A DNA stretch of 64,000 nt from Bryobacterales bacterium (GTDB lineage: Bacteria; Acidobacteriota; Terriglobia; Bryobacterales; UBA6623). The stretch spans positions 1,543,342-1,607,341 of the forward strand of contig CBDBIU010000004.1 of the NCBI GenBank assembly GCA_965206025.1, read 5' to 3'. The position numbers were made by a program, and so were the translations under genes. The notes beneath the pieces were generated by a model. It did not search any database. It was not told the DNA's origin and was given only the letters and a program-made list of their open reading frames with translations. Shown piece after piece: positions 2-17,388 of the stretch. Each line of letters opens with the position of its first letter. The stretch's first letter is position 1.

Positions 2-31
2 CGCCGCAAGAAGAAACGGCCGCACAACTGA
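2..31 (+). CDS. 3' end of an upstream gene (RRKKKRPHN*), possibly yidC
   Basis: Short basic open frame ending in TGA just before jag; identity inferred only from the usual yidC-jag-mnmE synteny. Confidence 0.25.
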   Translation, partial: RRKKKRPHN

Positions 32-8512: not shown

Positions 8513-9517
8513 CTATTGAACATTGCCGTCCACGAGCTTGCGCACGGTTGGATCGTCGAGGTCAGTCGCGGTAATAATGCGAGCCGGAAATTGAATCGAT
8601 CTTTGCGGCGTTTCGCCGTTTAGTTTTTGGACGACGGTCTCTACGCCCAGGTAGCCGATGCGGAACGTATCCTGTATGAGCAGCGCGTCGATGACCCCGT
8701 CTCGAAGACCCTGCTGCAAGCCGGGGCTGGCGTCAAACCCAACCAGCTTGACTTTGCCCGCCAAGCCGCGGGCGCGCAATGCCCGCGCCGCCCCCAGCGT
8801 AGTCTCCTCCCCTGAACAGAAGAAGCCGTCCAGCTCCGGGTGTGCCGTCAGCATGGTTTCCGCGACGGCCAAGGCGCGAGCCCGATCCGCCATGGCGTAC
8901 TGTTCGGCCACGATCTCGAGTCCGGCGTAGTCTTCCCGGAGCGCTGACTCAAAGGCTCTTTCTCGCTCCCCAATCGAAGAGGCGCCGGGAACATCTCGTA
9001 TGACGGCCACCCTTCCGACTCCACCCAGGAGTTCACTAACGCGGCGGGCGCCCGACAAACCAGCCGCGTGGTTGTCGGTGGCCACAAAGGATACGTATCG
9101 CTCTGTCGCTACTTTCGAATCGAGGATGGTTACGGGGATGCCCAGATCCGCCGCTCGCTCGACTACGCCCGCTAGAGCCATCCTCTCGGTCGGCGAGAGC
9201 ACGATCCCATCTACCCGGCCGTTGATCATGGACTCGACGATCTGAATCTGCCGCGAGAAGTCGGTTTCCTTCGTCGGGCCGTTCCACCGAATCTCGACAT
9301 CGAGATCCCGTCCAGCGGCGAGCACCCCCGCTTGCACGGATCGCCAAAACATGGAGTTCGTTCCTTTGGGCACAACGCCGATGACTCTTCGGCCCCTTCT
9401 CCGGCACGAAACCATTGTCGCCGGGAGCAATGCAATCAGGACACTCAGAAAGGTTCGTCTGCCCGTGGCGCGCCGTAACGTGTAGTGTACCGAGTTGAGT
9501 CGAAGAATCTCGCTCAT
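8513..9517 (-). CDS. Sugar-binding periplasmic protein (RbsB/Peripla_BP_4 type)
   Basis: IGVVPKG...FW..V.AG, VDGIVLSP, VATDN..AG, VGFD, QD.FRIGY; probable start ATG 9517 followed by a signal/lipobox-like segment (MVSC). Confidence 0.85.
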   Translation of the reverse strand: MSEILRLNSVHYTLRRATGRRTFLSVLIALLPATMVSCRRRGRRVIGVVPKGTNSMFWRSVQAGVLAAGRDLDVEIRWNGPTKETDFSRQIQIVESMINGRVDGIVLSPTERMALAGVVERAADLGIPVTILDSKVATERYVSFVATDNHAAGLSGARRVSELLGGVGRVAVIRDVPGASSIGERERAFESALREDYAGLEIVAEQYAMADRARALAVAETMLTAHPELDGFFCSGEETTLGAARALRARGLAGKVKLVGFDASPGLQQGLRDGVIDALLIQDTFRIGYLGVETVVQKLNGETPQRSIQFPARIITATDLDDPTVRKLVDGNVQ

Positions 9518-9664
9518 TCGAGGCTGTCCTACAATTAGATTTGCCCCTAGGATTACACCCTCGGCGGATGCTTGCGTCCTTCGCCGCTCCCGATGGTGGG
9601 AACGGCTCTCGTGCGTATTTTTGGCCAGCGGTCGGCAGCCGTGGAGCAAAGCCTCGCCGTTTGA

Positions 9665-9707
9665 GATGTAGGGGCGCGATTCATCGCGTCCGCTTGCCTT
9701 ACCAACT
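9665..9707 (+). repeat. GTAG-type REP, copy upstream of murB
   Basis: GATGTAGGGGCGCGATTCATCGCGTCC...ACCAACT; direct-repeat partner at 10790. Confidence 0.8.
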
Positions 9708-9761
9708 GTAAGCCGGGCGAGGTAGAACCTCTCGCCCCGAACACTGTGACAGCGGTGAGAA

Positions 9762-10736
9762 ATGCCGGCTGATCTCCTGGCCCGCGCCGTGGCCGCGCTG
9801 GGCGAAATTTCGGGCCTAGCGGTCCGTGAAAAAGTCAGTCTTCGCCACTACACTCGCTTCGGTATCGGGGGCGAGGCCGACCTTTTCGCCGAAACGGCGA
9901 GTCCGGAGGCTTTTGCGGCGGCGGTTGAAGTCTGCCGCGGGCAGCGATTCCCCTACTACGTTCTCGGCGACGGCAGCAACGTCATTGTGTCCGATGAGGG
10001 ATTTCGCGGCCTGATCCTGCGGTTCGTGGCAGACAATCTCGCGCTTGACGGCCGCCAGGTGACCGCGGACGCCGGCGCATCGCTCGAAGCGCTGGTCGAT
10101 TTCACGATCGCCGCCGGCCTGAGGGGCCTGGAAACGCTGGCCCGCATCCCCGGGTCCGTCGGAGCGGCCGTTTACGGGAACGCCGGAGCCTATGGCCATT
10201 CGATCTCCGAGAGCATAGAACAAGTCACCTTCTTCGACGGCGGCAAGGTCCTCGAGATCGACAGCGCCGCCTGCGAATTCGCCTATCGGGGCAGCGTCTT
10301 CAAGCATCACAAAGACTGGGTCATCTTCCAATGCCGGCTGAGGCTCGATCGAGCGGACGCCGGCGACTTGCGAAAAAGAGCCGACGAAATCACCGCCATT
10401 CGGGATGAAAAATTCCCTCCCGCCATGCGCTGCGCCGGCAGTATCTTTAAAAACTTGCACCTCAAGGACCTGCCGGAAGACGTAAGGACCCAAGTCCCCA
10501 AGCAAGTCACTCGGGAGGGCAAGGTTCCCGCCGCCTACTTTCTCGAACAAGTGGGCGCCAAGGGCCTGCGCCGCGGCGGCATCGAGATCGCTTCCTACCA
10601 CGCCAACCTGATCTACAACAAAGGCAATGGCACGGCGACCGAGCTGCGAGGCCTAATCGCCGAGCTGAAGGGCCGCGTCCACGAGCGCTACGGCTTCGAA
10701 GTCGAAGAGGAAGTGCAGTACGTGGGAGAGGTTTAG
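9762..10736 (+). CDS. murB: UDP-N-acetylenolpyruvoylglucosamine reductase
   Basis: YTRFGIGG.A, LGDGSNV, IPGSVGAAVYGNAGAYG, FAYRGS.F, CAGSIFKN, HAN.I.N. Confidence 0.97.
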   Translation: MPADLLARAVAALGEISGLAVREKVSLRHYTRFGIGGEADLFAETASPEAFAAAVEVCRGQRFPYYVLGDGSNVIVSDEGFRGLILRFVADNLALDGRQVTADAGASLEALVDFTIAAGLRGLETLARIPGSVGAAVYGNAGAYGHSISESIEQVTFFDGGKVLEIDSAACEFAYRGSVFKHHKDWVIFQCRLRLDRADAGDLRKRADEITAIRDEKFPPAMRCAGSIFKNLHLKDLPEDVRTQVPKQVTREGKVPAAYFLEQVGAKGLRRGGIEIASYHANLIYNKGNGTATELRGLIAELKGRVHERYGFEVEEEVQYVGEV

Positions 10737-10789
10737 CTCGCTTCTCGCCAGCGCTCGCCAGGAATGAGAGCGAAACGCCCGCCGTTAGG

Positions 10790-10832
10790 GATGTAGGGGC
10801 GCGATTCATCGCGCCCGCCTTCGTCACCAACT
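10790..10832 (+). repeat. GTAG-type REP, copy downstream of murB
   Basis: GATGTAGGGGCGCGATTCATCGCGCCC...ACCAACT. Confidence 0.8.
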
Positions 10833-10911
10833 CTATACCGGCCGATCTGTACAAACTGTTGCCGCGGGCCACGGCCACCGGTCTTGGCCCGACTGCGCGA
10901 CGTGGTGGCCG

Positions 10912-10940
10912 TTGACCGCTTCCGCCCGAGCCGATATACT
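10912..10940 (+). promoter_or_regulatory. Sigma70-type promoter of the his operon
   Basis: TTGACC (10912-10917), 17-nt spacer, TATACT (10935-10940). Confidence 0.75.
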
Positions 10941-10948
10941 GGAGTTTC

Positions 10949-11011
10949 ATGCGGTTAATGCTCCATCACCGGCATAGCCACCGCCATCATGGCGGTCGTG
11001 TGCGCCGGTAG
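10949..11011 (+). CDS. hisL: His operon leader peptide [20 protein letters not shown]
   Basis: 20 codons with 6 His codons in a 9-codon stretch, located between the promoter and a terminator hairpin; too short for the ORF track. Confidence 0.85.
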
Positions 11012-11049
11012 GGGATCACAGCAACAGTACGCAGCAGTTTCCGAATCCC

Positions 11050-11086
11050 AACCCGCCGGCGAGAGCGCTGGGCGGGTTTTTTCTTT
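11050..11086 (+). terminator. Attenuator intrinsic terminator
   Basis: AACCCGCC-ggcg-agag-cgctg-GGCGGGTT stem followed by TTTTCTTT; its 5' arm (CCGGCG 11056-61) can instead pair with CGCCGG 11003-08. Confidence 0.85.
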
Positions 11087-11096
11087 GGGCACAACT

Positions 11097-11480
11097 ATGA
11101 AACTCGACTTCACCAAACTCGACGGCCTGGCGCCTGCGGTCATTCAAGACGTGGATGACGGCCGCGTGCTCATGGTCGGCTTTATGAATGAAGAGTCGTT
11201 TCGAAAGACTTGCGAAACCGGGAGGGTGACGTTCTTCAGCCGTTCCCGCAACGAACTTTGGACGAAAGGCGGCACGTCGGGCCACTACCTGCTGGTGAAA
11301 GAGATCCAGGTGGACTGCGACGAAGATACGCTGCTGATCAAGGCCGAGTCCCTGGGTCCGGGCGTTTGCCATAATGGGTTCCGAAGTTGCTTCTACCGCC
11401 GTCTGAACAACGACGAATGGGAGCAATTTGAGGATCGCGCCTACGACCCGGACAGGGTCTACAAGGCGGAAACCCGGTAG
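11097..11480 (+). CDS. hisI: Phosphoribosyl-AMP cyclohydrolase (monofunctional)
   Basis: [29 protein letters not shown]; 127 aa with no HisE domain. Confidence 0.95.
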
Positions 11481-11486
11481 TTCCCG

Positions 11487-12740
11487 ATGCTCGAAATCAC
11501 CTCCAGTACTGACAAGGCGGCCCTGAACCGGCTCTTCACTCGCCGCCGGCGGCGGCTTGGGCGCGCCGAGGCGGTCGTGGGCCCGATTCTGGAGGCGGTC
11601 CGCAAACGCGGTGACCGCGCGCTTCTCCGATACGCTCGGCAGATGGATGGCCTTACCGCGCGCGGTGTTCGCGTGCCGCCGGAGGTCTTGCGGCGGGCGG
11701 CTGCTGGTCTGCCGAAGGATTTCCGCGGGGCGCTGGTCACAGCCCGCCGGCAAATACGCCGCTACGCCGAGCTTCAGATGCCTCGCTCATGGACGAAGCG
11801 GGCGCTCCCTGGCGTGAAGCTGGGCCAACTCGTGCGGCCCATCGAGTCGGTTGCGGCCTACGTGCCGGGAGGCCGATATCCCCTGCCCTCGACCTTGATG
11901 ATGACGGTCGTGCCGGCTCAGGTGGTCGGGGTGAAAGTCATTTCCGCCGCCTCGCCCCAGCCGACGAACGAAACGTTGGGCGCGGCGGGCTTGCTCGGGG
12001 TCGAAAACTTTTTCCACATGGGAGGCGCGCAGGCGATTGCCGCCTTCGCCTTCGGGACCGAGACTGTGCCCCGCGCGCAGCGCATTGTCGGTCCCGGAAA
12101 CATCTACGTCGCGGCAGCAAAAAAGTTGCTCGCCGGGGATGTCGGCATCGATTTCGTCGCCGGGCCGACTGAGATCGTTCTCATCGCGCCCGACGGCGAC
12201 CCCCGCCTTCTGGCGGCCGACATGCTGGCGCAGGCCGAGCACGACGCCGATGCCTCGGCAATCTTGCTGACCCGCTCCAAGCGGCTGGCCGGAAGGGTCG
12301 CGGCCGAGATCAACAGGCAGCTTTCTACCTTGCCCACCCGGGCGACGGCCGCGAAGTCGATCGCCAAGAACGGCGCCATCGTGGTAACGCGAAGTATCGA
12401 TGAAGCTTTCGAAATAGCGAACCGCTTCGCCCCGGAACACCTTTGGATTCCAGAGGAATCGCTCCTCTCGAAGGTCCAAAACGCCGGCAGCGTGTTTGTC
12501 GGCGCTTGGAGTCCGGAAGCAGCGGGCGACTACGCCTCGGGACCGAACCACGTCCTGCCAACGGGCGGGGCAGCCGCGCTGCGCGGGGGGTTGTCGGTGT
12601 TCGACTACTTGAAGATTATCTCCGTGCAGCAGCTTGAGGCGGCAGGTTTGCGGCGGCTGGCGCCTTCGATTTTGACGCTGGCCCGCGCGGAAGGCCTCGA
12701 GGCCCACGCCCGCTCGATCGAGGTGCGGCTCCATGCCTAA
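11487..12740 (+). CDS. hisD: Histidinol dehydrogenase
   Basis: YVPGG, GPGN.YV..AK, AGPTE, DMLAQAEHD, APEHL, DYASGPNHVLPT. Confidence 0.97.
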   Translation: MLEITSSTDKAALNRLFTRRRRRLGRAEAVVGPILEAVRKRGDRALLRYARQMDGLTARGVRVPPEVLRRAAAGLPKDFRGALVTARRQIRRYAELQMPRSWTKRALPGVKLGQLVRPIESVAAYVPGGRYPLPSTLMMTVVPAQVVGVKVISAASPQPTNETLGAAGLLGVENFFHMGGAQAIAAFAFGTETVPRAQRIVGPGNIYVAAAKKLLAGDVGIDFVAGPTEIVLIAPDGDPRLLAADMLAQAEHDADASAILLTRSKRLAGRVAAEINRQLSTLPTRATAAKSIAKNGAIVVTRSIDEAFEIANRFAPEHLWIPEESLLSKVQNAGSVFVGAWSPEAAGDYASGPNHVLPTGGAAALRGGLSVFDYLKIISVQQLEAAGLRRLAPSILTLARAEGLEAHARSIEVRLHA

Positions 12741-16103: not shown

Positions 16104-16592
16104 GTGCCCCATCTTTTTTACCACCTCGACTTCACGGTCTCGGTCTTCGTCGTTTATCGAGATAAGGTTCTGCTGGCCGATCACATTCAGCTGGACAAAT
16201 GGTTGCCTTTGGGAGGGCACATCGAGCCCGGGGAGGACCCCGAACAAGCAGCGCTACGCGAAGTGCGGGAGGAGAGCGGGCTCCGAATCGAGCTTTGCGG
16301 CGACCGCCCGCCGCGGGAATTTCCCGGGACTAGGACGCTGGTGGCGCCGGTCTTCCTGGACGTTCACGACATTTCCGGCGAGCATCGCCACATCGGCATG
16401 ATTTACTACGCGCGGGCCGCAAGCGACGACACGGTCCTTTCCGTTCAAGAGCATCGTCAGATCCGGTGGTTCGACGCCGAGGAGCTTAAGAATCCAAAAT
16501 GGAAGATCCCGGACGCGATCCAGTTCTACGCGGGAGACGCCATCCGCCGCTTGCGGCCCGTGGAACATGTCCCCAACAGGCCAACAGAGTAG
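16104..16592 (+). CDS. Nudix hydrolase embedded in the his operon
   Basis: Canonical Nudix box GGHIEPGEDPEQAALREVREESGL. Confidence 0.92.
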   Translation: MPHLFYHLDFTVSVFVVYRDKVLLADHIQLDKWLPLGGHIEPGEDPEQAALREVREESGLRIELCGDRPPREFPGTRTLVAPVFLDVHDISGEHRHIGMIYYARAASDDTVLSVQEHRQIRWFDAEELKNPKWKIPDAIQFYAGDAIRRLRPVEHVPNRPTE

Positions 16593-16665: not shown

Positions 16666-17388
16666 ATGATCATCCCCTGTATAGACCTGATGGGAGGCAA
16701 AGTCGTCCAGCTCGTCCAGGGCCGGGAAAAGGCTCTGGAGGGGGACGAACCGCTGGTGATGCTCGCAAAGTTCTCCGGCTTCCCGGTGATTCAAGTCATC
16801 GATTTGGACGCCGCCATGGACCAAGGTTCAAACGACGCCGTGGTCCGGGAGCTGGTTTCGCGGGCCCAGACGCGCGTGGGTGGTGGCGTGCGTACGGTCG
16901 AACGCGCGCGGCGCTTGGTTGAGGCTGGGGCATCGAGGGTAATCGTCGGCACGGCGGCCTTTGGCTCCGAGGGTGTCAACGAGCCCCTGCTTCAGCAATT
17001 CGGGACGTCGATCGGAGCTGAGCGGGTTATCGTGGCGCTCGACTCCAGAGACGGTCGCATTGTCGTCAGAGGCTGGCGGCAGTCGACCAAGCTTTCGGCG
17101 GAAGAGATGATTCACGGGTTGGAGCCCTACTGCGGAGGGTTTTTGTGCACCTATGTCGACAAGGAAGGGATGTTGGAAGGCACGGACCTGGATTGGTTTC
17201 GCCGTCTGCGCGCGGCTACGGACCACGAAATCACCGCCGCGGGTGGAATCACTACCTTGGAAGAAGTCCGCGAGCTTGCCCGGCTCAATATCCACGCAGC
17301 GCTGGGCATGGCCATCTACACCGGCAGACTCGATTTGGCCGCGCTGGCAACGATCCAAAGGGATCTGGGCGGCCCGCCACCCGAGTGA
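16666..17388 (+). CDS. hisA: ProFAR isomerase
   Basis: MIIPCIDL.GGKVVQL.QG, VIDLDAA, VGGGVR, TYVDKEGM..G, AAGGIT; start ATG 16666. Confidence 0.93.
   Translation: MIIPCIDLMGGKVVQLVQGREKALEGDEPLVMLAKFSGFPVIQVIDLDAAMDQGSNDAVVRELVSRAQTRVGGGVRTVERARRLVEAGASRVIVGTAAFGSEGVNEPLLQQFGTSIGAERVIVALDSRDGRIVVRGWRQSTKLSAEEMIHGLEPYCGGFLCTYVDKEGMLEGTDLDWFRRLRAATDHEITAAGGITTLEEVRELARLNIHAALGMAIYTGRLDLAALATIQRDLGGPPPE

Follow-up and report, generated by a model that had tools for sequence, protein, structure and literature searches.

A putative histidine attenuator with a probably leaderless leader peptide upstream of hisI in Bryobacterales (Acidobacteriota)

In the Bryobacterales genome analysed here a short reading frame rich in histidine codons lies directly upstream of hisI, the first gene of the his operon. 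This raises the question whether the operon is controlled by ribosome-mediated attenuation and, if so, whether the leader message begins at or very close to its own start codon. All positions given below are those of the window, i.e., the whole stretch of 64,000 nt that was analysed, and all elements of the proposed switch lie on its forward strand.

Leader reading frame and alternative helices before hisI

The leader ORF (10949-11011) comprises 20 codons followed by TAG, and its product has 20 residues with six histidines, exactly as the preliminary description had claimed. The histidine codons are found at 10964-69, 10973-75, 10979-81 and 10985-90. No model in Pfam or NCBIfam matched the peptide. 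Every base quoted in the preliminary description lies where it had been placed; only the hisI start codon needs correction, as it occupies 11097-11099 and does not follow position 11097. The hisI gene (11097-11480, Pfam PF01502) encodes the PRA-CH domain only. From an in-frame ATG at 10989, an 'extended hisI' ORF of 163 aa (10989-11480) runs across the 3' end of the leader and the terminator. This ATG is an annotation trap, as automatic gene callers may choose the wrong start for hisI, so that the leader goes unnoticed.

Four RNA segments can be assigned between the histidine codons and hisI. Region 1 (10959-10973) lies within the His-codon tract and forms the 5' strand of a 1:2 anti-antiterminator stem in the MFE folds, which also place an inner hairpin (10980-86/10990-96) in this stem. 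Region 2 (11002-11016, GCGCCGGUAGGGGAU) overlaps the stop codon and pairs with either region 1 or region 3 in the constrained folds. Region 3 (11045-11061, AUCCCAACCCGCCGGCG) serves twice, as 3' strand in the antiterminator and as 5' arm in the terminator, as seen in MFE and constrained folds, and region 4 (11066-11086, CGCUGGGCGGG) supplies the 3' arm of the terminator together with the U-tract U6CU3, as indicated by hairpin energy and RNAalifold. The mutually exclusive pairings that had been proposed for the leader are all present, namely CCGCCA (10981-86) with TGGCGG (10990-95), CGCCGG (11003-08) with CCGGCG (11056-61), and GGGAT (11012-16) with ATCCC (11045-49). The terminator itself, AACCCGCC...GGCGGGTT at 11050-11078, is followed by T6CT3; the hairpin has a predicted energy of -16.9 kcal/mol, runs into U6 and lies 20 nt before hisI.

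The folds of this RNA switch with the position of the ribosome. When the locus is folded without constraint, the 1:2 stem and the terminator form together. If the RNA stops at 11062 and its histidine codons are masked, the 2:3 antiterminator becomes the MFE structure (-19.8 kcal/mol); GCGCCGG then pairs with CCGGCGA and GGGAU with AUCCC. When a ribosome is placed at the stop codon, the terminator alone forms. The three helices are near-isoenergetic, with -20.8 kcal/mol for the 1:2 duplex and -21.0 and -21.6 kcal/mol for the other two.

Conservation of the leader in Bryobacterales and across the phylum

The hisI loci of 40 relatives and of 80 named genomes yielded 99 unique loci of Bryobacterales. 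A His-rich sORF was scored when at least four histidines fell within 10 residues at most 400 nt upstream of hisI. By this measure 91 of the 99 loci carry such a frame, compared to none of the 99 on the opposite strand or in shuffled sequences. The leader start codon is ATG in 84/91 and GTG in 6/91 of these leaders. Within the genus the six histidine codons change only synonymously between CAT and CAC, and residue changes occur at leader positions 2, 4, 10, 17, 18 and 19. We read the pattern at the histidine codons as a signature of selection on codon identity and translation, not on the peptide product. The CAT share amounts to 61% in the leaders versus 43% in the downstream frame, a control frame that is imprecise.

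A GC-rich hairpin with a U-run is found in 80/91 leaders, 14-60 nt before hisI, and in 76 non-redundant aligned leaders the core of region 3, (G/A)CCCGCC, is almost invariant. The RNAalifold consensus of these 76 leaders is the terminator, with compensatory changes at 4/7 pairs. The complement of its 5' arm, G(A/G)CGGGC or CCGGCGG, recurs at the 3' end of the leader ORF, and in a large subclade it lies exactly 14 nt before the stop codon. In the relatives the resulting 2:3 duplex has a median energy of -20 kcal/mol and sequesters the entire 5' arm of the terminator. Two loci (L013 and L014) show a triple compensatory change, where regions 2, 3 and 4 read CCGACG, CGUCGG and CCGGACGG, respectively.

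The preliminary description had proposed to look in related genomes for His-rich sORFs and covarying stems. The sORFs and the compensatory changes in the terminator were found there; covariation in the antiterminator was not significant, with a score of 0.094 compared to 0.095 in shuffles, because both strands are nearly invariant. A flank permutation test of the antiterminator gave p of about 0.04, and in this GC-rich RNA the duplex energies are only about 1-2 standard deviations better than those of shuffles. With covariation weak or null, the case for the antiterminator therefore rests on conserved complementarity and geometry. In fixed register the 2:3 pairing holds in 69.5-78% of cells, versus 19-47% after a shift of the partner by 1-3 columns. 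In 49/62 leaders a ribosome that has stalled on the histidine codons would cover region 1 with its footprint, and region 2 begins a median of 13 nt after the last histidine codon and ends within a few nucleotides of the stop codon.

Stalling of the ribosome could also act on Rho access or on translation initiation of hisI instead of on intrinsic termination. For such a mode speaks that hisI has no strong Shine-Dalgarno (SD) sequence and begins 20 nt after the terminator, and the mycobacterial Cys leaderless sORF provides a precedent that acts on translation (10.1101/834739). However, the hairpin with its U6 is canonical, GC-rich and kept at 80 of the 91 loci, and it is the 5' arm of the terminator, not the start region of hisI, that the alternative pairing engages, which makes this mode very unlikely.

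The higher conservation of regions 2, 3 and 4 compared to the peptide would fit an RNA sensor that works independently of translation, such as a T-box or another riboswitch, or a constitutive terminator or insulator, with the histidine codons being incidental. Against this stand the His-rich frame at 91 of 99 loci and at none of the controls, the purely synonymous variation of its histidine codons within the genus, and the start and stop of the ORF, which hold fixed positions relative to the helices. In addition, Rfam cmscan of 10500-11500 at E<=10 returned four spurious low matches and neither His_leader nor T-box nor any other accepted family. We regard a translation-independent device as extremely improbable.

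A covariance model, R1, was built from the 76 leaders. It matches this genome once, exactly at the leader, and 115/401 Acidobacteriota genomes, usually once per genome. Among these matches 26 lie directly upstream of hisI, and about 20 others are found on the same strand 5-9 kb ahead of it. The distal matches that were checked have hisG or hisD as the first gene downstream, or in one family a hisZ-like gene. Judged by its placement in these genomes, the leader element tracks the head of the his operon whatever the gene order. In a phylum-wide sample the same device was also present at 18/29 hisI loci from outside Bryobacterales. The RNA family defined in this way has no entry in Rfam, and the model can join annotation pipelines.

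Weak R1 matches (E about 1e-4) at L179, before an aroD/aroE-like gene, and at L183, before a PALP/threonine-dehydratase-like gene, were not accepted as histidine leaders; they are either terminator-driven false positives or other leader-type elements. Two MAG records labelled 'Bordetella sp.' (L080) and 'Chthoniobacterales' (L097) contain a Bryobacterales-like hisI (61-69% identity) with the same histidine leader, and their labels or bins are doubtful.

The reading as a ribosome-coupled histidine attenuator, put forward in the preliminary description, is thus supported by an sORF, a terminator and an antiterminator before the his operon, by their conserved geometry, by the switching folds and by the phylum-wide link to his genes. 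A ribosome-mediated transcription attenuator of the his operon is very probably the correct interpretation of this locus.

Promoter and predicted 5' end of the leader

The promoter that had been described, TTGACC-N17-TATACT, is present, and the ATG at 10949 indeed lies 8 nt past its -10 box. The -35 box TTGACC occupies 10912-10917, and in relatives without an extended -10 a TTGAC(A/C/G) is kept 16-18 nt 5' of the -10 box. The -10 box TATACT (10935-10940) recurs as such in 59/91 related leaders. The discriminator together with the predicted start zone reads GGAGTTTC (10941-10948), with transcription expected to start at about 10947-10949. Extended -10 elements (TGn, 43 loci) and good -35 boxes (19 loci) never occur together.

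The distance from the end of the -10 box to the start codon is conserved, being 8 nt in 49/78 loci and 9 nt in 11/78 (60/78 together). The last three nucleotides before the start codon are TTC in 38/78 loci, giving a pyrimidine-purine start context, and an SD-like 4-mer is present in only 5/78 loci. In other lineages 23 of 24 well-scoring promoters follow the scheme TTGACA-16..18-TAnnnT-6..11-ATG without SD. A few Bryobacterales leaders have a gap of 15-16 nt from the -10 box to the start codon and no SD.

Two families, f23 and f21 (L170-L173 and L175), carry the same histidine leader with a gap of 18-23 nt between the -10 box and the ATG, and here a GGAG or GAGG Shine-Dalgarno is located 7-8 nt before the ATG. 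This contrast argues that the short-gap forms manage without SD, as far as can be judged from the leaders compared. The SD-led lineages with the same switch also offer a ready-made comparison.

In the f21 and f23 lineages this device is clearly SD-led, with a short 5' UTR, which at the same time speaks for a second interpretation of the locus analysed here, in which the attenuator is the same and the message is not leaderless. Transcripts would then begin farther upstream, either at a different promoter or as read-through from murB, and the ORF would be initiated via the GGAG at 10941-44, which is located 4 nt 5' of the ATG in this genome. However, all six same-genus genomes have GGAA in place of this GGAG, their discriminator reading GGAATTTC, and SD-like words are as rare as stated above. 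Furthermore, a 4-nt gap between SD and ATG is short, throughout the phylum the promoter keeps its distance of 8-9 nt from the ATG, and TTGACC-17-TATACT is the sole sigma70-like site in 9500-12500. An SD-led start from a more distant promoter is therefore unlikely.

Instead, we consider it likely that the 5' UTR of the leader is at most 3 nt long, i.e., that the transcript is leaderless or near-leaderless, because the -10-to-ATG spacing is kept at 8-9 nt, no SD is conserved and the promoter architecture is shared across the phylum. With a gap of 8 nt, the A of the ATG is the ninth nucleotide after the -10 box, 1-2 nt past the usual start optimum in E. coli, so that a 5' UTR of 1-2 nt is as likely as one of 0 nt.

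Genome-wide, -10-like hexamers 6-12 nt before the first starts of long ORFs are about 1.7-2.7-fold enriched with crude ORF calls, and about 18 long ORFs follow directly after TATACT-N7-11 in this genome; counts for TATACT-N6 are inflated by a repeat family. This enrichment offers weak support for the leaderless reading. Leaderless genes have been predicted in silico for 13% of genes in Acidobacteria, with 9.7-19.4% across three Acidobacteria (PMC3160421).

Taken together, the locus probably encodes an attenuator that senses charged tRNA-His through a ribosome translating a leaderless or near-leaderless transcript. We infer the transcription start, the translation of the sORF and the response to histidine from the features described above, and the switch would work as follows. 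Transcription would start from TTGACC-17-TATACT at the ATG (10949) or 1-2 nt before it, and ribosomes would translate the leader ORF from a leaderless or near-leaderless message, with no help from a Shine-Dalgarno sequence. When histidine is plentiful, the ribosome would reach the TAG at 11009 and cover region 2 (11002-11016), leaving region 3 (11045-61) to pair with region 4 (11066-79) and leading to termination at the U-tract, 20 nt before hisI. When histidine is scarce, the ribosome would stall on the six histidine codons (10964-10990), melting the 1:2 stem and freeing region 2. The free region 2 could then pair with region 3 before region 4 is made, and the polymerase would read into hisIDCBHAF. 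If no ribosome is present, 1:2 and 3:4 would both form and transcription would terminate.

A more far-reaching reading takes the promoter placed against the start codon to be itself part of the sensor and ancestral to Acidobacteriota. Here, the 5'-AUG would be occupied by a 70S ribosome as soon as it emerges from RNA polymerase, resulting in an obligatory coupling of every transcript to a pioneer ribosome, so that an SD and a separate pause-and-catch-up step would not be needed. The conserved T-rich discriminator (TTTC, in a genome of 61% GC) would add stringent-response (ppGpp) control at initiation. If true, a module of about 175 nt would join promoter-level and ribosome-level sensing of amino-acid supply. 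With the pioneer 70S and ppGpp layers included, we regard this reading as doubtful.

Genes of the operon and comparison with known leaders

The his operon has the order hisI-hisD-hisC-hisB-hisH-hisA-NUDIX-hisF and ends at 17388, with Pfam matches, in this order, to PF01502, PF00815, PF00155, PF00475, PF00117, PF00977, PF00293 and PF00977. The NUDIX-family gene (16104-16592) is inserted between hisA and hisF. A classical hisE (PRA-PH) was not seen in the operon, and since in addition hisI is PRA-CH only, the NUDIX protein could be a stand-in for the PRA-PH pyrophosphohydrolase step. The hisG gene is solitary and far from the his operon on another contig (C5:1205890-1206450, reverse strand, locus L190). 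The approximately 450 nt of non-coding sequence upstream of it contain no His-rich sORF and no Rfam match, so the first committed step would escape the attenuator in this genome.

The classical hisL/trpL design is represented by the enterobacterial hisL attenuator (Rfam RF00514; Johnston et al., 1980, as summarised in PMC3896937). The Bryobacterales leader resembles it in the short ORF with histidine codons, in the exclusive 1:2, 2:3 and 3:4 helices, in the terminator before the first his gene and in the predicted control logic via charged tRNA-His. In contrast to this shared design, there is no sequence or covariance-model similarity to RF00514 and no leader-peptide match in Pfam or NCBIfam. 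Moreover, the histidine codons are interspersed (HH-R-H-S-H-R-HH), whereas hisL has seven in a row, and the first gene is hisI instead of the hisG of the enterobacterial operon. The hisL of E. coli is preceded by an SD, whereas the promoter of the leader described here directly adjoins the ATG.

For the leaderless arrangement the closest comparison is with Actinobacteria. In the Corynebacterium ilvB leader the transcription start is at the leader start codon (PMC5784534), and mycobacteria have poly-Cys leaderless sORF attenuators, of which the studied case acts by SD occlusion, i.e., on translation (10.1101/834739). As leaderless leader peptides are known in Actinobacteria, the arrangement is not new in kind. 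As in these leaders, the sensory sORF would be first on the transcript, with no 5' UTR or SD, and stalling on codons specifying the amino acid that is the end product is predicted to control the downstream operon. However, the leaderless state was shown experimentally in Actinobacteria and is a prediction here, the phylum and the amino acid differ, and the acidobacterial leader has a canonical terminator where the mycobacterial case acts on translation. If the leaderless start is true, it would place leaderless sensory sORFs outside Actinobacteria and provide a compact natural system for 70S leaderless initiation coupled to a transcribing polymerase.

Histidine leader peptides have also been predicted upstream of hisS and hisZ in Bacilli (Naville and Gautheret, 2010, PMC2965389). 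As in our analysis, an ORF with histidine codons and a premature terminator were found there outside Proteobacteria by comparative genomics, and the hisZ case has a counterpart in the acidobacterial family with the leader before a hisZ-like gene. However, the two sets of leaders belong to unrelated sequence families and control different genes, and nothing leaderless was suggested for Bacilli. For Acidobacteriota almost no attenuators with an assigned function have been reported (PMC2965389). In agreement with the preliminary description, which knew of no such arrangement characterised in this phylum, our literature searches found neither a his attenuator nor any other functionally assigned leader-peptide attenuator there. 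The leader described here thus assigns a putative function to a conserved non-coding element in an abundant soil phylum.

A scan of the genome for runs of W, C, M, F, Y, L, T, I, V, K, N, Q or S codons followed by a terminator gave no convincing second amino-acid attenuator; the candidates it returned were rejected as MITE frames or coding-frame shadows.

The upstream neighbour of the his promoter is murB. Between the murB stop codon and the promoter lies a palindromic REP/MITE-like dispersed repeat (10777-10818, CCGCCGTTAGGGATGTAGGGGCGCGATTCATCGCGCCCGCC); contig C4 alone has 40 or more copies of it, as judged by blastn against the genome. The repeat belongs to the context of the locus and lies outside the switch, possibly acting as an insulator. 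A second piece (10852-10881) recurs beside two other copies of the same repeat. Two further repeat families are abundant in the genome. One has about 80 copies and contains GGCGCGGATGTATACTGTGGCCGTGCCAAGGCCAA; in the other, a hairpin with a T-run follows a frame that reads SIFSSKDEPEDGGWGFLSRWGSFRAF. Both are found at many sites of the genome, e.g., at C4:1595327 inside the contig of the window.
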